Of a stretch of DNA of 55,851 bases, positions 16,966 through 34,694 are shown in pieces. The notes under the pieces are model-generated. The model was not told the origin of the DNA, searched no databases, and saw only the letters and a list, made by a program, of their open reading frames with translations. The first letter of the stretch is position 1; every line of letters begins with the position of its first letter. Source of the DNA: Dehalococcoidia bacterium (GTDB lineage Bacteria; Chloroflexota; Dehalococcoidia; Dehalococcoidales; E44-bin46); NCBI GenBank assembly GCA_004376105.1, contig SOKA01000091.1:1-55851 (forward strand), read 5' to 3'. Position numbers and translations under genes: made by a program.

Positions 16966-17469
16966 CTACCTTTTCTTCTGTTCCTCCCCAAGCAAGAAAC
17001 TGTCGAGGTCACTAACGAGTTGGGTAGTATCTGCTCCTGACCACGCCCCTTTGATAACGTCCAGGTTTACAAAGGTTTCCGTTCTTAAAACGCTGGGGAT
17101 GGTAGAGATTTCCTTTTCAATAAAGTTAGAGAGTTCTTTATGTGACCGGGCCACGACGAGGGCCATAAGGTCATACCTGCCAGCGACAAAGGCTAGGTGG
17201 CATACGTTCGCCTTCTTAGCTAGAGCATCCGCTACCTTTCTCAAGTCTACCATCTTAACCTGCATCCCTATAATGCTCATCAACGTGTAACCTAGCTCAC
17301 TCACATTCGGTACGGCAACTATTTTCATCATACCCCTATCCACAAGGTTTCTAACCCTCTTCCTTACCGTGCCCTCAGTTATTCCCAGCTTACTAGCCAG
17401 CTCTGTATAGCTCTTTCTTCCGTCTTTTTGCAGCTCCTCTATCAGTTTCCGATCGAGTTTGTCGATCAT
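16966..17469 (-). CDS. Lrp/AsnC family transcriptional regulator
   Basis: MIDKLDRKLIEELQKDGRKSYTELASKLGITEGTVRKRV (HTH) plus a C-terminal RAM/AsnC_trans_reg domain. The start is placed at MIDKL. Confidence 0.85.
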   Translation of the reverse strand: MIDKLDRKLIEELQKDGRKSYTELASKLGITEGTVRKRVRNLVDRGMMKIVAVPNVSELGYTLMSIIGMQVKMVDLRKVADALAKKANVCHLAFVAGRYDLMALVVARSHKELSNFIEKEISTIPSVLRTETFVNLDVIKGAWSGADTTQLVSDLDSFLLGEEQKKR

Positions 17470-17655
17470 GTCAACCTCACAGTAAGCACTTAGCATTATT
17501 ACATCACATTGTATTGTATCGCAATTTTACGATTTTGTGAAGGCCTTTCACGAAGGAACTGCGATAGACCCGAATTACCGGTTCCATTTGGCAATCTGTC
17601 GGAGTCCAGCCCAATGGTTGAGTAAGGTTTTCCCTAACATGAAGCGATAAATAGC

Positions 17656-17683
17656 TTGACAAATACGAATTCTGCGCTATAAT
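17656..17683 (+). promoter_or_regulatory. Near-consensus promoter for the D-aminoacylase cluster
   Basis: TTGACA (17656-17661), 16-nt spacer, TATAAT (17678-17683), leaving a leader of about 130 nt. Confidence 0.6.
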
Positions 17684-17819
17684 ATGGTCAATTAGCCGAT
17701 TTCCGTAAAAATATTGTGTCGAAAAGGGGAGCTATTTTGGAGAAGCGCCCGAGTGAAGGCTCAGGTAGTTGGGCATTATTGTTCAACGCTTCTTCGGTGA
17801 GTTTTAGAGGTTGTAGGTT

Positions 17820-19463
17820 ATGTTTGATTTACTAATCAAAAATGGAAAAATCATGGACGGCACAGGTAATCCTTGGTTCTTCGGAGACGTAGCAATTAAA
17901 GACAGTAAAATTGAAAAAATAGGCTTTATCGATAGCCGTTTAGCACGAGAGGTTATTAATGCAAAAGGATTTGTTGTTGCCCCTGGATTTGTGGATATTC
18001 ATAGCCATGCAGATTTCGTCCTCCCTCTTGATGAGCACCCCGAAATTCTGGAACCCCTTGTGCGTCAAGGTGTGACAACAATTGTGACGGGAAATTGTGG
18101 CTATTCCACAGCACCGATCAACCCGCAAACCCTTGAGTTACTAAAAACATACACGTTGTTCTTACAAACCGCAGAGCTTAAGTGGGAATGGCTTGATATG
18201 AAAGGATATATGGATTTTATTGAAAAAGGGGGCGTTGCCTATAATGTGGTCCCGTTGGTATCCCATGGGGCAATACGTATCGCTATAAAGGGCTTTGAAG
18301 GTGGTCCAGCCGCAGACTCTGAAAAAAAGGAGATGGCTAGACTTGCCAGGGAAGCCATGGAACAGGGGGTCTTTGGCCTTTCTTGTGGCTTAATTTACCC
18401 GCCAGGGATGTATTCTGACACCGATGAATTAACTGCCATTTGTAAGCCCCTAAAGGATTTCGGAGGCGTATTTACCTCCCATGTTCGTGGCTCAAGTGAA
18501 ACTTTATTATCGGCAACCAGAGAGATTATTAAGGTAGGTGAACAGAATGGTATTGGCGTAGAACATTCTCATCTGGAGGCTTTTGGTGAGGAGCATTGGC
18601 CGAAGATTGACCGTGTTCTAAATCTTCATGACGAGGCTCGTGCCAGAGGCGTGGATATCACCTTTGATGTTATCCCGTATATAGCTGCTAATACCACGCT
18701 TTTAGGTATTTTCCCACCCTGGTCTATCGAGGGAGGGGTAAGTAAGCTTATCGAGCGGTTAAAGAATAAAGAGGTCAGAAATCGTATCAATGTGGACGTA
18801 GAGGAGACTGTTTCCGACTGGCCACCTTGGTTGCCCGGTGCCTGGCCCCACAACCTTGCTAGAGCAGCGGGATGGAAGAATATTATTGTTATCTCGGTAG
18901 GCAGCGCTGTCAACAAGCATCTGGAAGGGAAAAACCTCGTGGAACTGGGAGAGGAAGAGAAGAAGATGCCTTTTGATGCAGCTGCCGATTTGATTATCGA
19001 AGAGGAGGGGCAGGTTATGGCGTTGTATATTGGGGTTTCTGGAGATATGAGGGGCGATGAGGGGCTGAGGAAAATAATATCACATCCTCGAGCTTCGATA
19101 TGTACGGATGCCATAATCACTGGAAGAGGTCTCCCACATCCGGCAGCGTACGGTTCTTTCCCCAAGGTGTTGGGCTATTTTAGCCGTGACCTAGGGCTCT
19201 TTACCATGGAAGAAGCTGTCAGAAAGATGACCTCCATGAACCTGCAGAGATTTGGGGTAAGGGACAGAGGGCTGATAAGAGAGGGGTGTTTTGCCGACAT
19301 AACCATTTTTGATGAAGCTACTGTGGGCGAAAGAGGTACATACTTTGATCCTGCTCACTCTCCTGAGGGGATTAAATATGTTATTATCAACGGAATCCCG
19401 GTTCTACAAGATGGTATATACAACAGCAAGCTCTGTGGCCGTGTTTTACGTAAACAAAGGTAG
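17820..19463 (+). CDS. N-acyl-D-amino-acid deacylase (D-aminoacylase) family amidohydrolase
   Basis: MFDLLIKNGKIMDGTG..VAPGFVDIHSHADF and a length of 547 aa are typical of the D-aminoacylase/Amidohydro_3 family. Confidence 0.8.
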   Translation: MFDLLIKNGKIMDGTGNPWFFGDVAIKDSKIEKIGFIDSRLAREVINAKGFVVAPGFVDIHSHADFVLPLDEHPEILEPLVRQGVTTIVTGNCGYSTAPINPQTLELLKTYTLFLQTAELKWEWLDMKGYMDFIEKGGVAYNVVPLVSHGAIRIAIKGFEGGPAADSEKKEMARLAREAMEQGVFGLSCGLIYPPGMYSDTDELTAICKPLKDFGGVFTSHVRGSSETLLSATREIIKVGEQNGIGVEHSHLEAFGEEHWPKIDRVLNLHDEARARGVDITFDVIPYIAANTTLLGIFPPWSIEGGVSKLIERLKNKEVRNRINVDVEETVSDWPPWLPGAWPHNLARAAGWKNIIVISVGSAVNKHLEGKNLVELGEEEKKMPFDAAADLIIEEEGQVMALYIGVSGDMRGDEGLRKIISHPRASICTDAIITGRGLPHPAAYGSFPKVLGYFSRDLGLFTMEEAVRKMTSMNLQRFGVRDRGLIREGCFADITIFDEATVGERGTYFDPAHSPEGIKYVIINGIPVLQDGIYNSKLCGRVLRKQR

Positions 19464-19669: not shown

Positions 19670-20860
19670 GTGAAACACAAGAAGTTGTTAGCATTAGTGA
19701 GTGGCATTTGTCTAATATCACTAGTTGGGGTCTCATTCATAGCCGGCTGCGCCCCAGGACCACCAGTAGAGGAGGAGCCAATCAAAATAGGCGCCATTCT
19801 GTGCCTCACCGGGGTGGTGGCAGAGCTAGGCCCCAAGTTCCGGGCGGGCATCGAGCTGGCACTGGAGGAGGCTAACTATGAAGTTGCCGGCAGACCGGTA
19901 GAACTTATAGTTGAAGACTCGGCGACTGATGTCACTACCGCTGTCGAGAAATTCAAAAAGCTGGTGGACCTAGACAAGGTGCATGTCGTCATTGGCCCAC
20001 TTATGGGCGATTCTCACCTGGCAATGGCACCCTATGCGGCTGAAAAGAAGATCCTTGTCACGTCTCTGATAAATGGAATGTATGAGGCTGTACAATATGA
20101 GACCTATTTAATCTACCCAACCACCTGTATGGCGCAGACTTATCCATTCGGCGAGTATTGTCATGACGTATTGGGTTACGACACCATGATCACTATAGGT
20201 GCCAACTATGCCGGTAAAATCGCTTATGCCAATGGCGCCGCGAAGGGTTTCGAGGACGCCGGGGGGACTGTGGTTCAGCAACTATGGCCAGATGTCGGCA
20301 CTCCAGATTATAGTCCTTTCATAGCTGCCTTTGGGGAAGCCGATGTTGTCCTCTATGCTATGGAGGGTCCTGGACCGGTAAGCCGATTTATCTACCAATA
20401 CCGGGAAGCAGGAAAGACAATGCCATTGGTGACCATCACCCAGGATGGAGACTATACCCCCGAGGCCTTGGCAGAACTTGGTGATATTGCCCTAGGTATT
20501 CTAGGCGAATCTTCCTACCCCTGGCAATTAGATACCGCAATCAACAGAGCATTTGTGGCGGCGATAAAAGCCAAGACTGGAGTGGTGCCTAGCTGCTCAG
20601 AGCAGAATGCCTACACAATGGCTAAGGTAGTTCTAGCCGGGCTAGAGGCTACGGGTGGCGATGACTCGTTTGACAAGCTGTGGCCAGCTATACTGGCGCT
20701 CGAAATAGATACCCCGCAGGGTCCTCTGTCCTTTACTCCTGAGGGGGTTGCCATTACAGATATGTATGTTACCCAAGCAGAGAAGGTAGATGGCGAATAC
20801 AGATTGTCGGCGCCGATTGACGTTGTTCACGCCATTCGCGACTGGAGACTGCCAGAATAA
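19670..20860 (+). CDS. Branched-chain/amino-acid-type ABC substrate-binding lipoprotein (LivK-like)
   Basis: GTG start with a GGAGG RBS and lipobox FIAGC. PIKIGAILCLTGVVAELG..ELIVEDSATD is the Peripla_BP_6 pattern. Confidence 0.8.
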   Translation: MKHKKLLALVSGICLISLVGVSFIAGCAPGPPVEEEPIKIGAILCLTGVVAELGPKFRAGIELALEEANYEVAGRPVELIVEDSATDVTTAVEKFKKLVDLDKVHVVIGPLMGDSHLAMAPYAAEKKILVTSLINGMYEAVQYETYLIYPTTCMAQTYPFGEYCHDVLGYDTMITIGANYAGKIAYANGAAKGFEDAGGTVVQQLWPDVGTPDYSPFIAAFGEADVVLYAMEGPGPVSRFIYQYREAGKTMPLVTITQDGDYTPEALAELGDIALGILGESSYPWQLDTAINRAFVAAIKAKTGVVPSCSEQNAYTMAKVVLAGLEATGGDDSFDKLWPAILALEIDTPQGPLSFTPEGVAITDMYVTQAEKVDGEYRLSAPIDVVHAIRDWRLPE

Positions 20861-20869
20861 GTTAGCCAA

Positions 20870-20906
20870 GGGCAGGTTGGGGTTTCCCCCAACCTGCCCT
20901 TTTCCC
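20870..20906 (+). terminator. Strong hairpin/terminator between the binding-protein and permease genes
   Basis: A 13-bp stem GGGCAGGTTGGGG-tttc-CCCCAACCTGCCC followed by TTTT. It is likely a partial terminator that sets the ratio of binding protein to permease. Confidence 0.7.
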
Positions 20907-20951
20907 TGACTAATGGCTCGGTGAGTGGAGCGTCACAGGTGATTAACTCTC

Positions 20952-21812
20952 ATGGAAACAGCCGTATTGACCTTTTTTAACGGGATTTCCTATGGCATGC
21001 TATTATTCCTTATAGCCTCTGGCATGTCCATTGTCATGGGGCTCATGGGTATAGTTAACCTAGCCCATGGCGCATTGTATATGGTTGGCGGCTATGTAGG
21101 TTGGACGATAGCCGTGCAGTATGACTTGAATTTCGGGCTGGCTGTTTTCCTGGGTGGGTGTGCTGGTGGGCTTACCGGCTTAATCCTGGAGCGCGGCTTC
21201 CTACGCCGCCTGTATAAACAACCAAACGAGCAAGTGCTGCTAACCTTTGGCTGTATCTACATCCTGAGCAACCTATGTATGTGGATTTGGGGTCCGAGAC
21301 GTCGGCTTCAGTTTACCGGCGAATTTCTGTCCGGTCTTATCCATATCGGAGGCATACCTTTCCCCATGACCCGAGTTTTTATTATCATCACCGGGATACT
21401 GGTGGCAATAGGTCTATGGTGGATGCAGGATAGAACCCGGCTTGGTGCCATGGTGCGGGGAGGAATGGACGATAAGGAAATGACAATGGGGTTAGGCATA
21501 AACCTGGAGCGGGTTTCTATGCTCGTTTTTTTCTTGGCTGCATTCATAGCTGGGATTGGTGGCGTAGTTGGAGCCCAGTTATTGGGCGTATACAACTGGC
21601 TGAGCACAGATATTTTGCTCCTGGCACTAGTTGTCGTCATTGTCGGCGGCATGGGCTCTGTACAGGGAGCTCTATTGGGGGGGATTGTGATAGGCCTTAT
21701 CGATACAGCTTTCAAAACCCTGCTCCCACAATTTTCCATGTTTACCATTTACCTAGCCATGATAATTATCTTGATGATTAGACCCAGCGGCCTTCTGGGG
21801 AGGAGGGTCTAA
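20952..21812 (+). CDS. livH: Branched-chain amino acid ABC permease LivH-type
   Basis: 286 aa polytopic protein with a typical LivH N-terminus (LTFFNGISYGMLLFLIASG..NLAHGALYMVGGY). Confidence 0.85.
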   Translation: METAVLTFFNGISYGMLLFLIASGMSIVMGLMGIVNLAHGALYMVGGYVGWTIAVQYDLNFGLAVFLGGCAGGLTGLILERGFLRRLYKQPNEQVLLTFGCIYILSNLCMWIWGPRRRLQFTGEFLSGLIHIGGIPFPMTRVFIIITGILVAIGLWWMQDRTRLGAMVRGGMDDKEMTMGLGINLERVSMLVFFLAAFIAGIGGVVGAQLLGVYNWLSTDILLLALVVVIVGGMGSVQGALLGGIVIGLIDTAFKTLLPQFSMFTIYLAMIIILMIRPSGLLGRRV

Positions 21813-21815
21813 GAG

Positions 21816-22829
21816 GTGGCAACAGCTAAACTAAAAGAGTCTGTTAAGCAACCATGGCAGGGGCAACTGATTCGTTTTACCCCTTATATCGCTGGTGGTG
21901 TAATCCTTGTCATATTGCCGGCTGTGATGCCCTCATATATTCAAGGCATATGGACTAGGTTCGTTATTTTTGCCATCTTCGCCGCGAGTTACGACCTTGC
22001 TTATGGTCACACCGGGCTTCTTTCCTTAGGACACGCTGCCTACTTTGGAGCCGGAGGTTATACCGCTGCTCTGCTAATGTTCCATTATGGCATTGACTCT
22101 CTTTGGGTAGGTATACCTCTTGGCATCTTGATAGCCGCGGCCGTTGCTGCTGCCTTCGGCTTTATCGCCCTTCGAGTGTCAGGTATGTATTTCCTATTAG
22201 TCACCTTTGCTTTGGCACAGTTGCTTTTTAGTATTACCTGGAATGTGCGATGGTTCAATTCCCCCGGCATGATGGGCATTGCCGGCTTACCACGCCCGAA
22301 CCTCGGCATCCCCTGGTTTAGCTGGAGCCCGATTAGTCTTTATTATTTTGTTTTGGTAATGTTTCTCATCAGTTTTTTCTTGATACATCGGATTATGAAT
22401 TCTCCCTTTGGATATGCCCTGAGAGGCATTCGTGAAGATGAAACCCGAATGCGGTCCGTAGGCTATAATACCTGGCTGTATAAATATATTATCTTTATTA
22501 TTACCGGAGCTTTTGCCGGGCTAGCCGGCGTGCTATTTGTCTATTATAATAGGTTCATATCTCCCACGCATATCGGTATCACGTTTTCCTTTTTGCCCAT
22601 GTGCATGGTAATAATAGGTGGCAGTGGAACGCTTTTGGGGCCTGTTATCGGGGCCATGGTGATAATATTTGCCGAATACTTTGCCAGTCTGTTTACCCCA
22701 GAGCGCTGGCCTTTGATACTGGGCGCTATTTTTGTTGTAGCTATTATGTATGCCCGGGGAGGGATTGCCATTCACCTGTCCCGGCTTTGGAAGAGGATGA
22801 GTTATCGTTATGGAAGCACTAAGAGTTGA
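21816..22829 (+). CDS. livM: Branched-chain amino acid ABC permease LivM-type
   Basis: 337 aa with YDLAYGHTGLLSLGHAAYFGAGGY, the LivM hallmark. Confidence 0.85.
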   Translation: MATAKLKESVKQPWQGQLIRFTPYIAGGVILVILPAVMPSYIQGIWTRFVIFAIFAASYDLAYGHTGLLSLGHAAYFGAGGYTAALLMFHYGIDSLWVGIPLGILIAAAVAAAFGFIALRVSGMYFLLVTFALAQLLFSITWNVRWFNSPGMMGIAGLPRPNLGIPWFSWSPISLYYFVLVMFLISFFLIHRIMNSPFGYALRGIREDETRMRSVGYNTWLYKYIIFIITGAFAGLAGVLFVYYNRFISPTHIGITFSFLPMCMVIIGGSGTLLGPVIGAMVIIFAEYFASLFTPERWPLILGAIFVVAIMYARGGIAIHLSRLWKRMSYRYGSTKS

Positions 22830-23577
22830 GGGTTTGTCCAAAGATTTCGGTGGTGTTCACGCCTTGAGCAATGTTTCCTTCAGCGTGGAAGTTGGAGAGC
22901 GCTTGGCGATTATTGGGCCCAATGGGGCAGGGAAGACCACGCTATTTAACCTGCTCAATGGACAGCTACTCCCAACAGCTGGTTGGATACAATTTTTTGG
23001 ACAAGATATTACTACTATGCCTACACATCGCCGTGCCCATCTTGGCCAGGGCCGCTCTTTTCAAATAATAAGCCTTTTCCTTAATCTTACGGTACTTGAT
23101 AATACTTTGATAACCCTTCACGGTACTAAACGCTCCCGTTTCCAAATGTTTCGCCCAATTAATCGGTATGAACATTTACTTACTAGAGCTCAAGAGATGT
23201 TGACATCAGTGGCTTTGTGGGAAAAGAAGGACGAGTTCGTGAAAAATATATCTTATGGAGAGCAACGGAGATTGGAAATCGCTCTTACTGCAGCCTCGGA
23301 ACCAAAACTATTGTTGCTCGATGAACCCAGTTCTGGGTTAACTGCTGCCGAAGGTGTTGATATTGTCACCATGATTCGTAACCTGGGAACAGATATTACC
23401 GTAGTTGTCGTTGCCCATGACATGGACCTAGTATTTGGTGTGGCTGACCGGATTATGGTACTCCATTATGGGCAGCTTATAGCTGACGGAACGCCTGAGC
23501 AAATCCAGGCTGATTCAAGGGTTAAGGAAATCTACATGGGAATTGAGGAGGGCACAGGAAATGCTAGAGCTAGTTGA
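22810..23577 (+). CDS. livG: ABC ATP-binding protein LivG-type
   Basis: GPNGAGKTT, the LivG-type insertion, YGEQRRLEIA and LLLLDEP. Confidence 0.9.
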   Translation: MEALRVEGLSKDFGGVHALSNVSFSVEVGERLAIIGPNGAGKTTLFNLLNGQLLPTAGWIQFFGQDITTMPTHRRAHLGQGRSFQIISLFLNLTVLDNTLITLHGTKRSRFQMFRPINRYEHLLTRAQEMLTSVALWEKKDEFVKNISYGEQRRLEIALTAASEPKLLLLDEPSSGLTAAEGVDIVTMIRNLGTDITVVVVAHDMDLVFGVADRIMVLHYGQLIADGTPEQIQADSRVKEIYMGIEEGTGNARAS

Positions 23578-24265
23578 TATTCATAGTTACTACGGGGAAA
23601 GCCATGTTCTCCATGGCATTTCGCTGAAGGTCAAGGAAGGCTCTGTAGTAGCTCTCCTAGGTCGCAATGGAATGGGGAAAACAACCACTATCCGCTCAAT
23701 CATCGGCTTTACCCCTCCGCGGCGCGGCGTGGTACGTTTTAAGGGAAAGGACATCACCGGTCTCCAATCCTACCAGATTGCTCAGATGGGCATAGGCTTG
23801 GTTCCCCAAGGGCGGCATATTCTCCCCTCATTGAGCGTAGAGGAAAACCTCACTATGGCAGCAACGACCAGAGGAAAAACTGAAGCCTGGACTTTAGATA
23901 CAGTGTATTCGCGCTTTCCTATTCTAAAGGAGCGAGCTAAGCTAGGTGGTAGTCGCCTCAGCGGTGGGGAACAGCAGATGTTGGCCATTGGCCGGGCTTT
24001 AATGACCAACCCCGAGCTACTTCTAATGGATGAGCCTTCAGAGGGACTGGCTCCAATAATTGTCCGGGAGATTAGCCACATTATTGGCCAGCTTAAGAAA
24101 AGCGGCTTATCTATCCTATTGGTAGAGCAGAATTTCCCCATGGCATTAGCCGCGGCCGATTATAGCTACATAATAAGTAAGGGCATAATAGTATATGAGT
24201 CTACACCCGAGGAGCTTAGAGGCAATGAGGAGGTTAAAGCCAAATACCTTGGTGTAGCAAAATGA
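23561..24265 (+). CDS. livF: ABC ATP-binding protein LivF-type
   Basis: GRNGMGKTT, LSGGEQQMLAIGRAL and LLLMDEPSEGLAP. The start is placed at MLELVDIH, downstream of a GAGGAGG RBS. Confidence 0.9.
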   Translation: MLELVDIHSYYGESHVLHGISLKVKEGSVVALLGRNGMGKTTTIRSIIGFTPPRRGVVRFKGKDITGLQSYQIAQMGIGLVPQGRHILPSLSVEENLTMAATTRGKTEAWTLDTVYSRFPILKERAKLGGSRLSGGEQQMLAIGRALMTNPELLLMDEPSEGLAPIIVREISHIIGQLKKSGLSILLVEQNFPMALAAADYSYIISKGIIVYESTPEELRGNEEVKAKYLGVAK

Positions 24266-24398
24266 GGGCAATAAGCTCTCCAAATTGGGAATTAAAGCTG
24301 GAGAATCGAGGTGAAGACTTTTGGGGGATAAAGAGCCAAACCTAAGGGCGGAATTAAATAGCTTTTACAACGAAAGTATAACGGGGAGAAGGAGGTAT

Positions 24399-24860: not shown

Positions 24861-24882
24861 AGATTTGAGGAGGAGGAAAGTT

Positions 24883-25191
24883 ATGGTAAAAGAGCCCCAA
24901 AATGTGCTTAAGGGGACCCTTGTCCAGATCCATAAGGTCATCCTGACACCGGAGCAAAGACCGGAGGATATACCGGCTTGTACGAAGAACGTCCCTTATG
25001 AAGCCTGGATAAAGGGGTTTCTTTTGGATGATGAGGCGAGGATTGGGGATACCGTCCAGATTGAGACCTTTATCGGGCGCCGACTCTCTGGGACTCTGGT
25101 TGAGGTGAACCCTGTATACATTCACAATTTTGGCAAACCTCAACCGGCTTTGCTTCCCGTGGGGAAACGGATAGGGAAGAGAAGGCAATGA
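24883..25191 (+). CDS. ortA: 2-amino-4-ketopentanoate thiolase alpha subunit (OrtA)-like
   Basis: About 100 aa. LVQIHKVILTPEQRPEDIPACTKNVPYEAWIKGFL..ARIGDTVQIETFIGRRLSGTLVEVNPVYIHNFGKP follows the OrtA pattern as I remember it. It overlaps ortB by 4 nt (ATGA). Confidence 0.75.
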   Translation: MVKEPQNVLKGTLVQIHKVILTPEQRPEDIPACTKNVPYEAWIKGFLLDDEARIGDTVQIETFIGRRLSGTLVEVNPVYIHNFGKPQPALLPVGKRIGKRRQ

Positions 25192-26614: not shown

Positions 26615-27901
26615 ATGCTTTCTGATTTTGAATTTAATCTCCAGCATCAGCTCTCCGGCCTCAAGGCATTAAGCAACATCAGCGAACTGGCAAAGGTTGG
26701 GTACAGGTTTGTGGGTACTGAAGGAGATAGAAAATCCATAGAGTTTATGAAGAAACAGTTTAAGTCCTATGGATTGGATGTTGTAGAACTACCCATCCGG
26801 GTTCCCACCTTTGAGGATGAGAAACCCCTCCTCAAGATTCTGGCGACTGGAGAAGAACTGGAATGCATTGCTCCTTTATTTTCACCCTCGACCCCACCCG
26901 GGGGGTTGGAAGCTAACCTAGTTCTGATCGGGGACGGGACAGAGGAAGATTATCGCCGGGTTAACGTACGAGGGAAAATTGTGGTTCTCCCTGAGACAAC
27001 TGTGGGGTTTGCCAAGTTCTGGTTAGGAACTTTCGCAGAGAGGGCGGCCCAAGCAGGTGCTGTGGGCATGGTTATAATTCACCCCATGCCATGGCCGTAT
27101 CGGATGACCATGGAAGCAGGATACTCGAATCCCCAAAAAAGATTCTGCGAGCAAAAACTTCCCGCCGTCTGTATTTCTGCTATTGATGGTTTAAAACTTA
27201 TGCACGCTATAGGAAAAGGGGAGACCAGAGTACGATTGGAGACAAAAAATCTGATAGAGGAAAGGGATTCGGTAATCATCTCCGCCTTCCGTCGGGGAAC
27301 AGAATATCCTGAAGAGCGAGTGGGTATTATAGCCCATCGAGACAGTGCAATCGCCCTCGGTGCCAACGACAATGGTTCGGGAAGTGGAACTATACTGGAG
27401 ATTGCCCGGGTTTTGAGCCAGACTAAGCCAAAAAGATCATTCGAATTTATCTCCAGTACTGCAGAAGATGGTGCCACGGTCGGTGCCTACAAGTATTGCG
27501 AGGTACACAAAGAGGACCTGGTCAAGAACATGAAGGCACTGTTAGATATAGACATGCTCAGCGGGGCTGTTGTTAAACAGATCGAAGTAGGGCATTGGCC
27601 GGATACAGAACCCATCAAACACCCGGCCTGGCTGCTGAAGATGGTTGATGATGTGGCTGCTGAACTGGGATATGGGTTCGGTAGGCTATCGGCAATGTGG
27701 GGTGTCCCAGAGGAAGGGCGATTTATCGATATAGGTGTACCAGCAACTGTTTTGTGGGCAAATGATGACCCCTATTACCATTCGATTCATGATACTGTCG
27801 ACAAGGTCAACCCGGCTAACCTTAAAGCCGCAGCGGATACCATTGCCATTGTGGCCTGGAGATTGGCGAATAGTAAAATCAAAGAGGAGGGGGAACGATG
27901 A
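26615..27901 (+). CDS. M28-family metallopeptidase with PA domain
   Basis: AHRDSAIALGANDNGSGSGTILEIARVL, the M28 zinc-ligand region. A PA-like insert is present (RGKIVVL). There is no signal peptide. Confidence 0.75.
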   Translation: MLSDFEFNLQHQLSGLKALSNISELAKVGYRFVGTEGDRKSIEFMKKQFKSYGLDVVELPIRVPTFEDEKPLLKILATGEELECIAPLFSPSTPPGGLEANLVLIGDGTEEDYRRVNVRGKIVVLPETTVGFAKFWLGTFAERAAQAGAVGMVIIHPMPWPYRMTMEAGYSNPQKRFCEQKLPAVCISAIDGLKLMHAIGKGETRVRLETKNLIEERDSVIISAFRRGTEYPEERVGIIAHRDSAIALGANDNGSGSGTILEIARVLSQTKPKRSFEFISSTAEDGATVGAYKYCEVHKEDLVKNMKALLDIDMLSGAVVKQIEVGHWPDTEPIKHPAWLLKMVDDVAAELGYGFGRLSAMWGVPEEGRFIDIGVPATVLWANDDPYYHSIHDTVDKVNPANLKAAADTIAIVAWRLANSKIKEEGER

Positions 27902-28731
27902 CATCAAAAGAAGTTTTAAAGAATCCTATCTTCCCAGCCCTTCAAAAAGTTGGACACAAGCCTGAGGATGAAATCTACACCTGGTCTCAGGGGCTGGGGT
28001 CTCATAACCAAAATCTTTTGAACGGTCTGAAAAGCAATGTTGAGGAACCATCGTTGAGGGAAGCGACCCTCAACGACCTGTGGAGCTTTTTCCACTCCGT
28101 CGGACTTGAAAAGGTTAATGAGGTCCTGGGAATAGAGGAAAAGCCCAATGTGGATAAAATCAACAAAACCCTGACCGATATCATGAATGATAAGGAACAT
28201 CCAGCTATCCTAGGAATGGGAGATTATACTGAAGAGGCTTTAGTCAACTGGGTAAAAGCCTTTGCCATTTATGATTTCGCTGCCTATACCTACCTAGAAA
28301 AGCATCTAGGTGCAAAAGACGCCTTGAAGATTTACATGGGTCTTTGGGAGAGCATTGCCCTTGCCCCCCTAGAGCAGCAGGCAAAAACCTTGGGGATAAA
28401 AGATGCATCCGGTATTGACATGGACACGATTGGAAAGCTGTCTCAGACCTACTGGGAATCCATTGCATCACCCTATCGTGTTACCCGGCATACTAAGGAT
28501 GTCCACGAGGCCGAGGTTTTGGTCTGCCCCTACTGGGAAAACATGAAGACTATCCTGGGTGAGGAGAAGGCCCGCTCCATGACCCTCAAGACTGAAGCTG
28601 TTGTCTCTGTCAACTATTACGACGCAATATTGAAGGCTCTCGGGGTTTTCGACAAATTCTCTTTTACCATGGATAAATTTGCCTGTTGTGGGGATGACTG
28701 TTGTAGAGTGAGGTTCGAGCGAAGAAAATAA
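27898..28731 (+). CDS. Hypothetical protein with Cys motifs (CPYW ... CCGDDCCRVRF)
   Basis: 277 aa, overlapping the upstream gene by 4 nt. It shares the CPY motif and a C-x-[VF]-x-F-x-R-[RK]-K C-terminus with the 31979-32569 product. It is reminiscent of ATC-hydrolase-like (PF14196-type) proteins; this is unverified. Confidence 0.5.
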   Translation: MTSKEVLKNPIFPALQKVGHKPEDEIYTWSQGLGSHNQNLLNGLKSNVEEPSLREATLNDLWSFFHSVGLEKVNEVLGIEEKPNVDKINKTLTDIMNDKEHPAILGMGDYTEEALVNWVKAFAIYDFAAYTYLEKHLGAKDALKIYMGLWESIALAPLEQQAKTLGIKDASGIDMDTIGKLSQTYWESIASPYRVTRHTKDVHEAEVLVCPYWENMKTILGEEKARSMTLKTEAVVSVNYYDAILKALGVFDKFSFTMDKFACCGDDCCRVRFERRK

Positions 28732-28756
28732 AGAATTTCATCAGAAGGAGGCAAAG

Positions 28757-29161
28757 ATGGAGTTGATTGAGGTTGCAAAAAGCTGGTTGAAAGCCATGAA
28801 TGAGCACGATATAGATAAGATGAGCTCTTTGTGCTGGAAAGATGCCGTGGGAGACGAGGTAGCAGAGCCCCCTCCTGCCGAGGGTAGCGAGCAAATCGCA
28901 ACCAGCTACCGAGAGTTATTCACCGCTTACCCAGATTGTGCCGCGGAGATTCTTAATATCTTCTCTGGTCAGAACCAGGTTCTAGCAGAGGTCCGATGGG
29001 CAGGAACCAACAAGGGTGACTTCCGCGGTACCCCCGCCACAGGGAAGTTTGTAGATATCAGGATCGCTTATATCTTCAAGGTCGATGAAAAGAAGATTAG
29101 TAGGATCACTGAATACTATGATGCTGCCACGCTTGCCAGACAGATAGGGCTTTCTCCGTGA
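28757..29161 (+). CDS. SnoaL-like / NTF2-fold protein, second copy
   Basis: 134 aa with WLKAMNEHDIDKMSSL...YRELFTAYPD...GTNKGDF.GTPATGK...I.. , the ester-cyclase-like pattern. Confidence 0.6.
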   Translation: MELIEVAKSWLKAMNEHDIDKMSSLCWKDAVGDEVAEPPPAEGSEQIATSYRELFTAYPDCAAEILNIFSGQNQVLAEVRWAGTNKGDFRGTPATGKFVDIRIAYIFKVDEKKISRITEYYDAATLARQIGLSP

Positions 29162-29191: not shown

Positions 29192-30316
29192 GTGGGACAA
29201 GCAAGACAAAGTATTGAAAGGGCAACAAGAGCAATTATCGATCTTGGAGCGGTATCCTATAATGTTGCTGAGATACGGAAGAAGATAGGAAGCAAAAGAG
29301 GCCTGATGGCTGTGGTCAAGGCCGATGGCTATGGCCATGGTGCTGTAGAAGTTAGTAAGGCAGCCCTCAGAAGCGGGGCAGATTCTCTCGGGGTTGCCCT
29401 TCCGGAAGAGGGCCAACAGCTAAGAGAAGCAGGAATTGAGGTCCCCATCTTAGTTGTGGGGTTGATTCAGCCGGGGGAGGCCTATAAAGTGGTGAAGTTC
29501 CGTTTGGCTCAGACTGTTGCCTCTGTTGAACTCCTGGAGGCTTTGGATCACGAAGCCAGCAAGGCTTCTACCCGGGTTAGCGTGCATATCAAGCTGGACA
29601 CGGGGATGGGGCGGATTGGAGTAAAGCCTGACGACGCAGTCTCTTTCGCTTACAAGGTCAAGAGCTTTAAGAATCTAAATCTTGAAGGATTGTTTAGCCA
29701 CTTTTCTTCAGCAGGCGAGAGAGATAAGACTTTTTCAAAGCGGCAACTTCAACTTTTTGACCAGGTTATCGCTAACCTTCAGCTTGCTGGTATCGAGGTG
29801 CCCAAAAAGCATATGGCAAACAGCGCAGCGGTCCTAGATTTTCCTCAATCCTATTATGATATGGTGAGGCCAGGGATCATAATCTATGGTCTCTATCCCT
29901 CCACAGAGATTAGTCACAGTATTGAGTTAAAACCTGCCATGACCTTGAAAACTAAGGTCTTCCAGGTCAAGGTAGTTCCTCCCGCAACTCCTATCAGTTA
30001 TGGGAGAACATTCACCACCAAGGGAAGAACTACGGTAGCGACCCTTCCCGTGGGATATGCTGATGGTTATAGTCGGCTACTGTCCAATCGTGGGGAGGTG
30101 TTGATAAAAGGGCACCGAGCTCCGGTGATCGGTAACATCTGTATGGATATGTGTATGGTAGACGTTTCCAGCGTGGAAGATGTTCGACCAGGGGACGAAG
30201 TAATCCTGTTCGGCGAAGAACTATCTGTGGACGAGATCGCAGCCAAAATTGGCACTATCAACTACGAGATAGTTTGTGGTGTTAGCAAGAGAGTACCCCG
30301 AATCTACATCCAATAA
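29192..30316 (+). CDS. alr: Alanine racemase family PLP enzyme
   Basis: AVVKADGYGHGA (PLP lysine), PVGYADGY and NICMDMCMVD. GTG start. Confidence 0.85.
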   Translation: MGQARQSIERATRAIIDLGAVSYNVAEIRKKIGSKRGLMAVVKADGYGHGAVEVSKAALRSGADSLGVALPEEGQQLREAGIEVPILVVGLIQPGEAYKVVKFRLAQTVASVELLEALDHEASKASTRVSVHIKLDTGMGRIGVKPDDAVSFAYKVKSFKNLNLEGLFSHFSSAGERDKTFSKRQLQLFDQVIANLQLAGIEVPKKHMANSAAVLDFPQSYYDMVRPGIIIYGLYPSTEISHSIELKPAMTLKTKVFQVKVVPPATPISYGRTFTTKGRTTVATLPVGYADGYSRLLSNRGEVLIKGHRAPVIGNICMDMCMVDVSSVEDVRPGDEVILFGEELSVDEIAAKIGTINYEIVCGVSKRVPRIYIQ

Positions 30317-30335
30317 ACAAGAAAGGAGATAGGAG

Positions 30336-30809
30336 ATGGCGAAGGTTTTAATCATTTATCATTCAAGGACTGGAAATACGGAGGCAATGGCCGAGGCGGT
30401 GGAGGCAGGTGTCAAAAGAGAGGGCTTGGAGGTTATTAGGAAAAGGATCGAGGAGGCGAGTGTCGATGACCTCCTGAAGCCTGATGGCATTATCATCGGC
30501 TCTCCCACCTATTTTGCTGCTGCCGCAGCCGAAGTCAAAAAATTTATCGACGAGAGCATCAAACACTTTGGCAAGTTAGAGGGAAAGGTAGGTGCCGCCT
30601 TCTCATCGTCTGGTGACCTAGGAGGGGGCAGTGAGACAGCAATTCTGGATATCCTGCGGGCTTTCTTGGTTCATGGAATGATCATCCAGGGAGCTACATC
30701 AGGGGGTCACTATGGTCCGGTCTCTGTGGGTGCTCCCAACCAAGAACGGAAGGAAATATGTGAAGCATTGGGAGCAAGGGTTGCTAAGCTTGTTAAACGA
30801 CTGGCTTGA
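30336..30809 (+). CDS. Flavodoxin-like / WrbA-type FMN protein
   Basis: MAKVLIIYHSRTGNTEAMAEAV...IIIGSPTYF, a flavodoxin-like fold. Confidence 0.75.
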   Translation: MAKVLIIYHSRTGNTEAMAEAVEAGVKREGLEVIRKRIEEASVDDLLKPDGIIIGSPTYFAAAAAEVKKFIDESIKHFGKLEGKVGAAFSSSGDLGGGSETAILDILRAFLVHGMIIQGATSGGHYGPVSVGAPNQERKEICEALGARVAKLVKRLA

Positions 30810-30820
30810 GGGAGGTTTCA

Positions 30821-31927
30821 ATGATTGTTGGTATTCCAAAGGAGCTGAAGGTAGCTGAGAGGAGAGTGGCTATCACACCTGCGGGTGTTCAAGCATTGGT
30901 GGAACTAGGACATACGGTTCTGATCGAGGCTGGAGCTGGCCTGGGAAGCGGCCTTCAGGATAAGAGCTACGTTCAAGCGGGTGCTGAGATTCGGCCGTCT
31001 TCCGAGGTATGGAACAACTCAGAAATGATTCTTAAAGTAAAGGAACCTATCACGCCTGAGCTTGACCTGATGCATGAGGGGCAAATTGTCTTTACCTTCC
31101 TCCATCTGGCTACTGACAAAAATCTTACCCAAAAGCTGATGGAAAAGAGGGTTATTGGGATAGCCTACGAGACAATTCAGACGGACAAAGGCTTCCTACC
31201 ACTGCTTGCCCCTATGAGTGCTATTGCTGGGCGCCTCTCAATTCAGATGGGGGCATATTGCCTAGAAGCTAAAAGCGGAGGCATGGGAACCCTGCTGAGC
31301 GGAGTGCCTGGCGTGCAACCGGCTCACGTGGTAATCCTAGGAGGCGGCATTGTGGGGGTCAATGCCTGTTACATTGCAGCAGGGATCGGTGCCCAAGTCA
31401 GCGTCCTAGATATCAACCCGCAACGCCTGGCCTACATCGATAAGGTGACCAGTAGCAAAATCATCACACTGATGTCGAATCAAACCAATATTGAAGAAGA
31501 GGTCATGGGTGCGGATCTCGTCATTGGGGCTGTTCTCATTCCCGGAGCCCGCGCTCCTAAGCTGATCTCCAAGGAACTAGTCAGGAGGATGAAGCCGGGG
31601 GCAGCCATCGTTGATGTTGCAGTTGATCAAGGAGGATGTTGTGAGACCACACGCCCGACGACCCATGAGAACCCGACCTATGTGGAGGAGGACATTGTTC
31701 ACTACTGCGTAACCAACATGCCCGGAGCTGTTCCTCGTACCTCGACTTTTGCCCTGACCAATGCTACCCTACCATACGTGCTGGAGGTCGCCAACAAAGG
31801 CTATGAACGGGCTATCCAAGAGAATCCGGAGATAGCCAGGGGAATGAATGTAGTCAAGGGCAGTATATCGCACAAAGTGGTGGCTGAAAGTCTAGGGTTA
31901 AGCTATACGCCCATAGAGAGGAGGTGA
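30821..31927 (+). CDS. ald: Alanine dehydrogenase
   Basis: MIVGIPKELKVAERRVAITPAGV, VVILGGGIVG and the typical Ald length (368 aa from this ATG). The RBS is GAGGGAGG. Confidence 0.9.
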   Translation: MIVGIPKELKVAERRVAITPAGVQALVELGHTVLIEAGAGLGSGLQDKSYVQAGAEIRPSSEVWNNSEMILKVKEPITPELDLMHEGQIVFTFLHLATDKNLTQKLMEKRVIGIAYETIQTDKGFLPLLAPMSAIAGRLSIQMGAYCLEAKSGGMGTLLSGVPGVQPAHVVILGGGIVGVNACYIAAGIGAQVSVLDINPQRLAYIDKVTSSKIITLMSNQTNIEEEVMGADLVIGAVLIPGARAPKLISKELVRRMKPGAAIVDVAVDQGGCCETTRPTTHENPTYVEEDIVHYCVTNMPGAVPRTSTFALTNATLPYVLEVANKGYERAIQENPEIARGMNVVKGSISHKVVAESLGLSYTPIERR

Positions 31928-31978
31928 TACCGAGTTTAAAGGCAAATTTTCCTAAAAGAAGAAAAGGAAAGGAGAACT

Positions 31979-32569
31979 ATGGAAAAACCAATCAGGAACA
32001 ACGATATCATTGAAAATTACAAGGAGATGCAGAAAACCAACCCGAAATTGACCTTTGAGCATGGGTTGAGAGCCATACTGACCCTCTTCACACTGCATGA
32101 TTATTCCATGTTCACCGTGATGGAGCAAGAGGTCGGAACGGACCGAGCCGTAAATCTCTACGCTAAAATATGGGGACTAAGATCGGAACTGGAATGGCCA
32201 TCTCTATGCGCAGCGATTGGGAAAAAACCTGAGGACAAATTCACCATTGATGATGTGGCCAACATCATGGTCGCCGGCTTTGCCGACTTCGGCAACCCGA
32301 TGGAAGTGGTGGAGAAGACTGAAGACCGGGTTACCCTTCGGAATTACGATTGTCCCTACACGACGCAAGTGATCTGGAAACTTCTCTCACCAGAAAAGGC
32401 CTTCGCCTTTAATAATAAGATTCAGCTACAATGCAATCATGCGCTTTTTGAAACATACTTGAAGTTGGCCAGGCTCGACGACCAGTGGACTTTCAATTTC
32501 CCCTCCCAGCTGTGTTTGACTAATCAGTACTGTGAATTCACATTCATCAGGAAAAAGCTCAGCAAGTAG
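31979..32569 (+). CDS. Hypothetical protein, shorter paralog-like relative of the 27898-28731 product
   Basis: 196 aa with NYDCPYTTQV and the C-terminus QYCEFTFIRKK, the same motif arrangement as the 277-aa protein. Confidence 0.5.
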   Translation: MEKPIRNNDIIENYKEMQKTNPKLTFEHGLRAILTLFTLHDYSMFTVMEQEVGTDRAVNLYAKIWGLRSELEWPSLCAAIGKKPEDKFTIDDVANIMVAGFADFGNPMEVVEKTEDRVTLRNYDCPYTTQVIWKLLSPEKAFAFNNKIQLQCNHALFETYLKLARLDDQWTFNFPSQLCLTNQYCEFTFIRKKLSK

Positions 32570-32732
32570 CACCAAGAGCTAGCTAGAGGTAACGGCGGTT
32601 TGATTTAGGCAAAAATAATTGCTGGTTTCGTAGAAGGCGGGCTCTGCCAGCCTAGCTGAATCGGCACGTGGCATCCCGCCTCCAGTTATAGGCACGGCTG
32701 GAATCGCTGGATAAATTGGGAAAGGAGGGAAA

Positions 32733-34694
32733 GTGGCAAGCATACTGACCTTTAACGCCCCCCCTGAATATTATAAACTCTGGGAATCTTCAATAGAGGA
32801 CCCGGAAGGTTTTTGGGGGGAAATGGCAGAGAAGTCTATCAGTGATATTTATTGGTTTAAGAAATGGGATAGGGTTTTTGAAAGAAGACTCCCCGGCTTT
32901 AAATGGTTCGTCGGTGGAAAGACGAATACCGGATATAATTGCGTAGATTACAAGCTACCAAGGTATAAGGATAAAGCTGCTTATATTCAGGAAGTACCAG
33001 AACTCGGAATTTCACGAACGATAACTTATGGTGAACTGTTCGACGCTGTCAAAAGGCATACCGCAGCGCTCAGAAATCTGGGGGTCGAGAAAGGTGATCG
33101 GGTGCTTTTTTACATACCAAACAGTTTAGAGGCCGTGACTATGCTACAAGCGTGTGCCAGGATAGGCGTAATATCTACATGCGTATTTGCCGGCTTCTCG
33201 CCGGGGGCGTTAGCTAACCGGATAGAATTAACAAAGCCAAAAGCGATATTCACCCAGGATTTCACCCTCAGAAGAGGTAGGAAGGTACAGCTTAAAGAAG
33301 CTGTTGATGAGGCTATTAAGCTCTGCTCTCAAGAAGTAGCCGAAGCGGTGAAATTTATAATTATCAATCCAATAGAGGGAAGGGAGATTTCTCTAACTAG
33401 TAATAGGGATATTTCCCTAGCAGAATTTGAAAAAGGAGGGAAAGGGGGGAATAAAGGATATGCTGTGCTCGAAGCAAATGAACCACTACTCATAATGTGC
33501 ACCTCAGGAACCACAGCTAAGCCGAAACCTGTAGTCCACGTTCACGGGGGCTTTGAAATTTGGACTTACTGGACTGCTAAGTGGATATACGGCATCAAGC
33601 CTGAAGATGTGATCTTTAATACAAGTGATATAGGTTGGATTGTTGGCCAATCCTACCTTGTTTTTGCACCCTTGCTTGCTGGATGTAGTGTTATACTTTA
33701 CGAGGGAGCTCCTAATTTTCCTCAACCAGATATGTGGTGGGAAATTATAGAAAAGCACAAAGCTACAATGCTTTGGACCGCGCCAACCGGCGCCAGAGCT
33801 CTGCGTGGTCTTGGCGTGGAACAAGCTGAAAAGCATGATTTAAGTTCTCTTGAGAGGATAGTTGTTGCGGGAGAAGTTCTAAATCCAGAGGTTTGGTCTT
33901 GGTTATATAATGAGGTATTTAAAGGTAAGGTGCCTGTTTTTGACCACATGTGGCAGACCGAGGTTCCGGGTTCAATGTTTGGCTATTCCTACGGAGTTAA
34001 AATGCCAGAGGTTAGACCAGGCTCGGCTGGATTCCCTCTTCCAGGAATACTTCCGGAAATAGTGGATGAGCGTGAAGGAAAGCCTTGTAGCGTTAATGAG
34101 AAGGGTATTCTCTTACTCAAGGAACCTGTTCCTGGTATGACTCAGACTTTGTGGGAAGACCCTGAGTGGTATCGTAAAGAATATTGGGACGCACAGCCCA
34201 TTACTACAGGTCGATACTTCACAGGAGACTCCGCTTATATGGATGAGGACGGCTATATTTGGTTCTGTGGAAGATCTGATGAAGTTATGAAGATTGCAGC
34301 CCATAGAATAGGACCGGCAGAGGTGGAGAGTGCGCTTGTTTCGCATCCTGCAGTTAATGAAGCGGCTGTCTGCGGGGTGCCCGATGAACTTAGAGGCCAA
34401 GTTGCAGCAGCTTTCGTTGTTCTTAAGCCAGGGGTTCGACCATCGGATGGGCTAAAGAAGGAAATAATGGAACACGTTAGAAAGGTCATGGGACCTATTG
34501 TAGTATTTCAGGGCATAGAGTTTGTAAATCTACTTCCTAAAACGAGAAGTGGGAAGATTATGAGAAGGGTGATGAGAAAATTGTGGGCGGGTGAGGAGTT
34601 GGAAGACCTTTCCACAATAGAAACCGAGGCTTCCGTCGATGAAATCAAAGAAGCAGTTTCTAAGCTTATCGTGTCTAAACAGCCTCAGCTGTAA
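32733..34694 (+). CDS. AMP-forming acyl-CoA synthetase (acetyl-/short-chain acyl-CoA synthetase family)
   Basis: 653 aa. ACS-type N-terminus (DPEGFWGEMA..WFVGGKTNTGYNCVD), AMP motif TSGTTAKPKP, YFTGD, and SGKIMRR at the C-terminus. Confidence 0.85.
   Translation: MASILTFNAPPEYYKLWESSIEDPEGFWGEMAEKSISDIYWFKKWDRVFERRLPGFKWFVGGKTNTGYNCVDYKLPRYKDKAAYIQEVPELGISRTITYGELFDAVKRHTAALRNLGVEKGDRVLFYIPNSLEAVTMLQACARIGVISTCVFAGFSPGALANRIELTKPKAIFTQDFTLRRGRKVQLKEAVDEAIKLCSQEVAEAVKFIIINPIEGREISLTSNRDISLAEFEKGGKGGNKGYAVLEANEPLLIMCTSGTTAKPKPVVHVHGGFEIWTYWTAKWIYGIKPEDVIFNTSDIGWIVGQSYLVFAPLLAGCSVILYEGAPNFPQPDMWWEIIEKHKATMLWTAPTGARALRGLGVEQAEKHDLSSLERIVVAGEVLNPEVWSWLYNEVFKGKVPVFDHMWQTEVPGSMFGYSYGVKMPEVRPGSAGFPLPGILPEIVDEREGKPCSVNEKGILLLKEPVPGMTQTLWEDPEWYRKEYWDAQPITTGRYFTGDSAYMDEDGYIWFCGRSDEVMKIAAHRIGPAEVESALVSHPAVNEAAVCGVPDELRGQVAAAFVVLKPGVRPSDGLKKEIMEHVRKVMGPIVVFQGIEFVNLLPKTRSGKIMRRVMRKLWAGEELEDLSTIETEASVDEIKEAVSKLIVSKQPQL

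Follow-up and report, generated by a model that had tools for sequence, protein, structure and literature searches.

The only role known to us for the two-subunit thiolase OrtAB (2-amino-4-oxopentanoate thiolase, EC 2.3.1.263) is in Firmicutes, where it catalyzes the final step of B12-dependent ornithine fermentation. Here we describe a second, widespread genomic setting for OrtAB in uncultured anaerobes, with its own uptake system and two unnamed protein families, starting from a 55.8-kb stretch of DNA (hereafter “the window”) of a Dehalococcoidia bacterium (contig SOKA01000091.1). At positions 16966-34694 of the window, ortA and ortB lie among genes for an ATP-binding cassette (ABC) importer, two amide hydrolases, two SnoaL-like proteins, and a pair of V4R-fold proteins, and none of the usual ornithine-pathway partners is encoded nearby. 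In our judgment it is somewhat probable that this is a self-contained catabolic operon in which OrtAB is fed by a route without ornithine aminomutase or Ord. The presence of these genes in place of the usual B12-dependent partners suggests an undescribed way of supplying this enzyme.

OrtAB without the ornithine-pathway partners

Gene calls in the window were checked against Pfam and NCBI curated models (Table 1). OrtA and OrtB both passed the NCBI equivalog cut-offs, which bears out the assignment made in an earlier note on this DNA. As that note had also claimed, the partners are missing: Ord, OraS, OraE, Or-4, and Orr, all of which flank OrtAB in the canonical locus L016, had no tblastn counterpart in the window. 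The sole match obtained with the L016 queries was the expected weak fold similarity between Alr and Orr, and the window racemase is Alr (the Orr model gave it 22 bits against a cut-off of 480).

A scan for OrtB in one genome per species yielded 39 loci, which we sorted by tblastn with canonical and window proteins. About 23 were canonical (Ord and/or OraS/OraE adjacent), nine had the window gene set or OrtB clade, three formed a third variant, and four were of other kinds. Ord lies beside ortAB in L016 and most Firmicutes loci. At least 16 of the 39 loci lacked an aminomutase within the flanks examined, and “ornithine degradation” is therefore an unsafe annotation when it is made from OrtAB alone. 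The nine window-type loci are annotated as Dehalococcoidia, Chloroflexia, Desulfobacterales, Spirochaetota, Thermotogae, and Proteobacteria (annotations of metagenome-assembled genomes), and sequences of the two V4R-like families also carry the source names Gemmatimonadota and Bipolaricaulota. The cluster is carried on a Desulfobacterales chromosome (CP070746.1, 6.97 Mb). The sole OrtB in a plasmid collection was a canonical one from Acetoanaerobium, and that collection held no homolog of the larger V4R-like protein (277 aa).

Scanning JGI and ENA metagenomes with the 277-aa family added 80 further loci. Gene frequencies were taken from 27 non-redundant loci in which no less than 5 kb of sequence precedes the 277-aa gene and no less than 4 kb follows it (Table 1). 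The non-canonical context of ortAB noted earlier thus stood up to neighborhood comparison: the gene set recurs on dozens of independent contigs across differently annotated lineages, and this places the arrangement far beyond chance. The list of partners, on the other hand, had to be revised. The acyl-CoA synthetase, alanine racemase (Alr), and alanine dehydrogenase (Ald) are accessories, found in 30%, 59%, and 19% of the loci, respectively, while the M28 peptidase, the second SnoaL-like protein (SnoaL2), and the 277-aa protein are invariant.

Two gene orders were seen. The first is that of the window, with an AsnC-type regulator wherever the upstream end is visible (the window, L042, and L043); the regulators at this position in L042 and L043 are orthologs of the window protein with 66-68% identity. 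One metagenome contig, L047, matches the window gene by gene at 77-93% identity. In the second order a HTH_3-cupin regulator, which replaces the AsnC type in other lineages, is followed by OrtA-OrtB-Amidohydro_3-M28-278aa-SnoaL-(Alr-Fld-Ald)-199aa-LivKHMGF, and the first SnoaL-like protein (SnoaL1) is absent. Clustering of all unlabelled flanking open reading frames (ORFs) from 94 loci revealed no hidden conserved enzyme family. The recurrent extras (DUF362, M24, major facilitator superfamily, and electron transfer flavoprotein/acyl-CoA dehydrogenase proteins) each occurred in four loci or fewer, and the unknown ORFs upstream in L040 were not related to the V4R-like proteins.

One possibility for these observations is that ornithine or D-ornithine is still degraded, with Ord, OraSE, and Orr encoded elsewhere in the genome and the operon freeing ornithine from acylated or peptide-bound forms, a release that a deacylase and a peptidase could carry out. 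It is consistent with the unchanged core of OrtB (see below). In addition, a cobalamin riboswitch in the window lies upstream of genes for a FecCD-type permease and an ABC ATPase, likely a B12 uptake system; its presence indicates an organism that uses cobalamin and makes B12 enzymes plausible. However, at least one of Ord, OraS, and OraE was found within the 10-kb OrtAB flanks in about 23 of the 39 species-level loci, compared to 0 of the 27 window-type loci. Moreover, the racemase is Alr and not Orr, and independent lineages put an aminotransferase next to OrtAB in place of Ord instead of leaving Ord unlinked. We consider continued ornithine degradation quite unlikely.

The thiolase core is unchanged

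To compare the two settings at the level of the enzyme, we aligned 72 OrtB sequences, 42 of window type and 21 canonical. The pyridoxal phosphate (PLP)-lysine motif GSFKDRRA, the SGNYGAA loop, and the GGGN loop are kept (≥97%) across all 72, and the fold-type-II PLP motifs are therefore intact. At 95% conservation, 155 positions are identical in the window-type and canonical groups and none was found to be fixed differently between them. Only two differences appear at 90% (L18M and L377H), and at 80% the clades differ only at positions 18, 188, 197, 364, and 377. A shift in specificity was looked for by this clade comparison and was not found. In a neighbor-joining tree the window-type sequences form one clade, whose nearest neighbors are two Bacillota sequences; the closest relatives of the window OrtB itself (92%, 84%, and 83% identity, from L001, L038, and L037) are all from uncultured Dehalococcoidia. 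Since OrtB shows no clade-specific change in its active site, its conservation suggests that the enzyme probably still acts on 2-amino-4-oxopentanoate or on a closely similar compound.

From alanine to pyruvate

The canonical thiolase yields D-alanine as a product (PMC13397332), and alanine racemase is therefore the logical next enzyme, followed by Ald. The earlier proposal that these two enzymes funnel the alanine product to pyruvate is supported by the equivalog-level scores of both and by the replacement of alanine dehydrogenase in sister loci. In L042 and L043, where OrtB is 83% identical to that of the window, Ald is absent and the operon includes an OCD-family protein that passes the archaeal-type alanine dehydrogenase model (TIGR02371, 421 bits versus 409); judged by this score, it is a non-orthologous replacement of Ald. 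Canonical loci of Halanaerobiales also carry Alr and/or Ald next to OrtAB. A Gaiellales locus, L031 (6071-12355), reads ADP-forming acetyl-CoA synthetase-Ald-OrtA-OrtB-Alr-like racemase, which is an ATP-yielding layout; a very large protein with a BadF/BcrA-type activase domain is encoded farther downstream in the same locus. In L046 (11236-11388) the racemase has been cut to a 50-residue remnant in an otherwise intact cluster, which fits Alr being dispensable. Taken together, the catabolic direction and alanine as a product are well supported.

The earlier note had also raised the reverse reaction. In that case Ald and Alr would make D-alanine, the synthetase would make acetyl-CoA, OrtAB would condense the two to 2-amino-4-oxopentanoate, and SnoaL-type cyclases and other proteins would build an unusual product. 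All three supply enzymes are indeed present in the window, and polyketide cyclases are the best-known SnoaL-like proteins. However, the enzymes that would make the building blocks are the dispensable ones, the two hydrolases belong to the core, and an importer with a binding protein accompanies the cluster in nearly every lineage. The Gaiellales locus, furthermore, couples OrtAB to an ATP-yielding synthetase. Thiolytic cleavage is the favored direction of such reactions. Biosynthesis is very unlikely because importers of three families accompany the module and Alr, Ald, and the synthetase can be lost; a catabolic function, by comparison, fits the importers and hydrolases.

Importers and amide hydrolases

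The importer joined to the module varies with lineage among three families (Liv, Opp/Dpp, and CUT1), and the accompanying regulators are of small-molecule-sensing types. An Opp/Dpp-type peptide importer stands in place of the Liv system on the Desulfobacterales chromosome, and third-variant loci have a CUT1-type importer instead of Liv. The solved proteins nearest to LivK are 4ZPJ, 4EY3, 4EVS, and 4F06, the last three of which we take to be aromatic-acid binders of R. palustris. A second Liv-type gene set, with two binding proteins and two permeases, lies just upstream of the cluster.

The first gene of the operon had been called a D-aminoacylase. Family membership was upheld (E = 4e-63 to the N-acyl-D-glutamate deacylase 3GIP in addition to the 1M7J match in Table 1), and the metal ligands HxH, Cys, His, His, and Asp all align with those of 1M7J. 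The substrate implied by that name fared less well. In D-acylases the carboxylate of the substrate is held by the Tyr of a PYP motif and by an Arg (Arg373 in KleDacyl) that is strongly conserved among the characterized enzymes (PMC12149444). The cluster-linked proteins keep the Tyr (IPY versus PYP), but the Arg is replaced by Ala (HPR to HPA) in 32 of 32 copies, third variant included. With the Arg lost from the carboxylate site, the substrate cannot safely be called an N-acyl-D-amino acid that has a free carboxylate, and the residues identify a distinct subfamily of D-aminoacylases.

The M28 peptidase retains its metal ligands, with the motifs HRD, GANDN, E, DM, and YH maintained across 52 sequences. 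Its nearest solved relatives are the PA-domain aminopeptidases 2EK8 and YwaD, and inspection of the N-terminus revealed no evident signal peptide.

A paralogous pair of V4R-fold proteins

Two proteins of the cluster, of 277 and 196 aa, had been described as unknowns with Cys motifs. The conserved cysteines are real, and the description can now be corrected to a pair of paralogs (BLASTP E = 6e-12; hhalign probability 97.8%) with a V4R/H-NOX/Bet3 fold. Neither protein had a significant Pfam or PDB sequence match; the fold was assigned from AlphaFold2 models, in which the predicted local distance difference test scores were 92.5 (277 aa) and 92.4 (196 aa). With the 277-aa model, Foldseek retrieved H-NOX, the sensor domains of PoxR, MopR, and DmpR, and Bet3 at a probability of 1.00, with whole-chain template modelling (TM) scores of only 0.35-0.43. 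The 196-aa model matched Bet3/TRAPPC3 with TM scores of 0.57-0.68. A relationship between V4R and Bet3 has been published (PMC2253512).

At the profile level, the 277-aa protein had a weak, nearly full-length match to ATC_hydrolase (PF14196; E = 0.47, 11.7 bits versus a threshold of 28.1). DUF6125 (PF19620) was matched by 24 of the 33 members of the 196-aa family (best E = 1.3e-5), and ATC_hydrolase by five. Three cysteines are common to the paralogs (210/263/269 in the larger, 125/179/185 in the smaller) and each protein has one more. We take the three, which lie in the C-terminal region, to resemble the Cys3-plus-Glu zinc site of MopR; a three-Cys Fe-S site may be an alternative.

The two families are tiny. 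A word-indexed search of 5.8 billion proteins gave 304 matches for the 277-aa protein and 90 for the 196-aa protein, all named “hypothetical”. In an exhaustive profile search of 1.84 billion representatives at 50% identity, there were 58 matches in all and the full-length 277-aa family formed a single cluster. An alignment of 30 sequences, with Chloroflexota-, Desulfobacterota-, and Gemmatimonadota-named members, has about 75% mean column identity and many invariant polar residues.

SnoaL2 has a conserved set of residues, E34, Y51, D60, E78, and R90, together with an EYYD motif, and our reading of this acidic/Tyr/Arg set suggests that it would suit enolate chemistry on a keto acid. The nearest solved relatives of the SnoaL-like proteins are putative cyclases and SnoL (E = 1e-3 to 1e-5), and both proteins scored well above the Pfam SnoaL threshold of 28 bits (Table 1). 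The flavin mononucleotide (FMN) protein is unusually well conserved in window-type loci (77 of 157 positions at ≥93%), and a FMN_red-type relative with 31% identity (E = 1e-10) follows OrtB in an unrelated context (L012, 11432-12046).

How OrtAB may be fed

The core of the cluster contains no dehydrogenase or aminotransferase, and it follows that the keto group arises either without net redox or outside the cluster. Loci of other kinds give some indication of how OrtAB can be supplied. In two unrelated contexts, L012 (3826-12046) and L028 (5438-12753), a class-III aminotransferase lies directly beside OrtAB, which suggests that a transaminase can replace Ord. The former also encodes Amidohydro_1, Amdase-family, M20, and OCD-family proteins in addition to the FMN_red protein, and the latter a PotD-like ABC importer. 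In L038 (4909-8291), a Dehalococcoidales locus with OrtB of the window clade, gamma-glutamyltranspeptidase is immediately upstream of OrtA-OrtB and no other cluster genes are found on the 10-kb contig. In the third variant, OrtAB occurs with Amidohydro_3, Amidohydro_2, SnoaL, and a luciferase-like oxidoreductase. Amide hydrolases beside OrtAB are thus a common theme of OrtAB loci.

These data suggest a scheme for the cluster, in which we infer the imported compound, the order of the steps, the redox-neutral feed-in, and the catalytic roles of the SnoaL-like, V4R-like, and FMN proteins. The Liv-type system (Opp- or CUT1-type elsewhere) would import an amide-linked, amino-acid-like compound, and the atypical Amidohydro_3 enzyme and the M28 peptidase would take it apart in the cytoplasm. 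SnoaL2 and the paralogous V4R-fold pair would then act on the freed part, in a conversion that is redox-neutral overall, to give (2R)-2-amino-4-oxopentanoate or a gamma-oxo amino acid very similar to it. OrtAB would then use CoA to cleave this keto amino acid to acetyl-CoA and D-alanine, which Alr would convert to L-alanine and Ald to pyruvate, NH4+, and NADH. Finally, the acetate-type CoA ligase would recover the short acid freed by deacylation.

A more specific version of this scheme is that the M28 peptidase, SnoaL2, and a heterodimer-like V4R-fold pair with a Cys3-metal site are a new enzyme system, one that makes 2-amino-4-oxopentanoate without B12 or net redox from an abundant amide or cyclic compound derived from necromass. 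We regard this as possible but doubtful. If it is true, it would be an undescribed route of substrate-level phosphorylation in widespread uncultured anaerobes and would provide the first catalytic function in metabolism for a V4R/DUF6125-type protein.

Several compounds were considered as the source and, by inference, set aside. 4-Hydroxyproline and the keto amino acid are isomers, but opening the C5-N bond of the former would call for radical or reductive chemistry, and no enzyme for this is evident. N-acetyl-D-alanine is also an isomer, and the N-to-C acyl shift that it would require is implausible. Ectoine lacks a C-C bond to the acetyl carbon. Kynurenine would need O2 to form, and OrtB shows no change of its pocket. 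D-glutamate and diaminopimelate from peptidoglycan would be wrong in oxidation state or in carbon skeleton. Rings of the methylated pyrimidinone or ureide type would be chemically neat with an amidohydrolase and an M28 peptidase and were not adopted; we know of no natural ring compound of that kind.

Another possibility is that two separate units travel together: a module that scavenges peptides or amides (importer, Amidohydro_3, M28, V4R pair, and SnoaL), with the V4R-like proteins as ligand carriers or sensors, and an OrtAB-Alr-Ald unit fed from elsewhere. About 15% of the loci have the hydrolase/V4R/SnoaL module without OrtAB. The module is seen in this form in L121, L123, L125, L096, L098, L099, and L108, and some loci without OrtAB carry a M24 creatinase/prolidase-type peptidase with an Opp-like importer, or DUF362. 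OrtAB, for its part, is found elsewhere beside the aminotransferase, the gamma-glutamyltranspeptidase, or the Amidohydro_2 and luciferase-like enzymes described above, and the V4R fold is typically that of a binding domain. However, OrtAB is not appended to the module but lies within it, between the importer or SnoaL1 and M28, with overlaps or spacings of 4-17 nt. This holds in 85% of the loci, in differently annotated lineages and in both gene orders, and the flanks encode nothing else that would supply the keto amino acid. Independent units are therefore an unlikely explanation.

Some of these observations nevertheless weigh against a self-contained operon. No core enzyme has a known chemistry that gives a 4-keto group. 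The putative roles of the SnoaL and V4R-like proteins are proposed from their folds, and V4R/Bet3/H-NOX domains are mostly ligand binders, not enzymes. As a share of the loci carries the module without OrtAB, the two halves may not form one pathway. In addition, ord and oraSE may lie elsewhere in a genome for which the window itself encodes riboswitch-controlled B12 uptake.

Organization of the locus

The cluster consists of one divergent Lrp/AsnC regulator and 17 co-directional genes on the plus strand, and the genes listed in the earlier note were all found in place. Its statement that they are translationally coupled applies to the pairs that overlap: OrtA/OrtB, M28/277-aa, and Fld/Ald, each by 4 nt, as well as LivM/G and LivG/F. 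The other junctions are gaps of 3-55 nt except for three longer ones: 91 nt separate LivK from LivH, 163 nt precede the synthetase, and 206 nt follow the amidohydrolase. A promoter-like site lies 137 nt 5' of the first gene. The G+C content is about 47% and the cluster shows no compositional break. The CoA ligase at its end scored below the TIGR02188 equivalog cut-off.

On the far side of the cluster, a tRNA-Lys gene is found about 430 nt past the last gene and is followed by a 409-aa protein with a lipoprotein-like N-terminus and no Pfam match. Upstream of the cluster, a NrpR-type regulator adjoins glutamate dehydrogenase and hisF. The NrpR family is known mainly from nitrogen control in methanogens, and the best model for the glutamate dehydrogenase is archaeal GdhA.

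Table 1. Features of the window and frequency of the corresponding genes in 27 non-redundant loci
Feature	Position	Strand	Evidence or remark	Share of 27 loci
ABC ATPase	2278-3078	-	B12-type transporter	
FecCD-type permease	3078-4157	-	B12-type transporter	
Cobalamin riboswitch	4260-4406	-	RF00174, 39.8 bits	
Second Liv-type gene set	6384-11590	-		
Glutamate dehydrogenase	13341-14615	-		
hisF	14692-15477	-		
NrpR-type regulator	15464-16459	-	PF01995, 283 bits	
Lrp/AsnC-type regulator	16966-17496	-	Pfam HTH_AsnC-type, AsnC_trans_reg; divergent from operon	
Promoter-like site	17656-17683	+	TTGACA-16 nt-TATAAT; 12/12 consensus matches; consensus match only	
Amidohydro_3 metallohydrolase, D-aminoacylase family, atypical subfamily	17820-19463	+	PDB 1M7J, E 1e-72	74%
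LivK, LivH, LivM, LivG, LivF ABC importer	19670-24265	+	Pfam Peripla_BP_6, BPD_transp_2 (x2), ABC_tran (x2)	74-93%
LivK lipoprotein binding protein	19670-20860	+	Liv-type	
SnoaL-like (NTF2-fold) protein 1 (SnoaL1), accessory	24321-24860	+	Pfam SnoaL 85 bits; N-terminal extension	52%
OrtA, small subunit of 2-amino-4-oxopentanoate thiolase	24865-25191	+	NF040739 113 bits (cut-off 70); Pfam OrtA; true start codon uncertain	
OrtB, PLP-dependent subunit of 2-amino-4-oxopentanoate thiolase	25188-26597	+	NF040741 784 bits (cut-off 550)	85%
M28 metallopeptidase with PA domain, predicted cytoplasmic	26615-27901	+	Pfam Peptidase_M28 and PA; PF04389 74 bits (cut-off 21)	100% (any homolog, 27-88% identical)
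V4R/H-NOX/Bet3-fold protein A (277 aa)	27898-28731	+	AlphaFold2 model and Foldseek; conserved Cys210/Cys263/Cys264/Cys269	
SnoaL-like (NTF2-fold) protein 2 (SnoaL2), core partner	28757-29161	+	Pfam SnoaL 74 bits	100% (directly 3' of the 277-aa gene in most)
Alanine racemase (Alr)	29192-30316	+	TIGR00492 414 bits (cut-off 168)	59%
Flavodoxin-fold FMN protein (FMN_red/WrbA-like; Fld)	30336-30809	+	Pfam FMN_red and Flavodoxin families	67%
Alanine dehydrogenase (Ald)	30806-31927	+	TIGR00518 504 bits (cut-off 392)	19%
V4R/H-NOX/Bet3-fold protein B (196 aa), paralog of A	31979-32569	+	Conserved Cys125/Cys152/Cys179/Cys185	85%
AMP-forming acetate/propionate-CoA ligase-type synthetase, accessory	32733-34694	+	NF001208 669 bits (cut-off 657)	30%
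tRNA-Lys	35126-35199	-		
409-aa protein	35258-36487	-		
tRNA-Val/Arg/Leu group	46747-47002	-	Beyond tRNA-Lys	
Ord/OraS/OraE/Orr				0% (within 10 kb)

Significance and comparison with known systems

If the operon works as proposed, it would be a new energy-yielding route that gives acetyl-CoA and pyruvate from one imported molecule. Such a route would be of importance for Dehalococcoidia and Desulfobacterota, as little is known of the organic substrates they use. The cluster also offers a handle on the function of the DUF6125/ATC_hydrolase-like V4R proteins and of a D-aminoacylase subfamily that is unable to bind substrate in the usual way. A full-text search of the literature found no description of it; queries with OrtA/OrtB, the substrate, and DUF6125 gave papers on the canonical ornithine pathway or nothing.

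Individual components resemble parts of several known systems. The catabolic clusters for ectoine and hydroxyectoine (Doe/Eut) follow a similar plan, with regulation by an AsnC-type protein, uptake through an ABC importer, hydrolysis of a ring or amide together with deacylation, and a step that produces acetate; OCD-family and PLP fold-type-II enzymes occur in related loci. The likeness goes no further, as no homologs of DoeA-D were recognized in the window and a thiolase would obtain no C-C-linked acetyl group from ectoine chemistry. The AtcB/AtcC (2-aminothiazoline-4-carboxylate) and hydantoinase pathways, in which a ring-opening hydrolase works with a carbamoylase, are similar in that the window, too, has proteins with weak, nearly full-length matches to ATC_hydrolase (both V4R-like proteins) alongside a dinuclear-metal hydrolase of a peptidase family and an amidohydrolase. 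In contrast to AtcB/AtcC, the ATC_hydrolase matches in the window are far below the Pfam cut-offs and the peptidase is M28, not M20. To our knowledge, there is no cyclic substrate that would give 2-amino-4-oxopentanoate.

The V4R-like pair has the same fold, by Foldseek, as the phenol sensors MopR, PoxR, and DmpR and as TRAPP Bet3, with its three conserved cysteines in the C-terminal beta-strand/helix region. Unlike the MopR-type sensors, the window proteins stand alone as a conserved pair in a metabolic operon and have no DNA-binding or ATPase partner domain. Similarly, the amidohydrolase is like the D-aminoacylases (1M7J) in its Amidohydro_3 family (E = 1e-72 to 1e-63), its metal ligands, and the Pro-Tyr of its carboxylate site, and is unlike them in having Ala for Arg and an insertion of about 60 residues (547 aa versus 484 aa).

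The closest comparison is with the ornithine cluster of Clostridium (Acetoanaerobium) sticklandii (orr, oraS, oraE, ord, ortA, and ortB). Both have the same two-subunit PLP thiolase, with an unchanged core and the same expected products. The window cluster is without Orr, the B12 aminomutase, the reactivase-like Or-4, and Ord, and has instead its own importer, two amide hydrolases, SnoaL-like proteins, the V4R-fold pair, and the FMN protein. Unlike the sticklandii type, it occurs for the most part in uncultured Chloroflexota, Desulfobacterota, and other non-Firmicutes.

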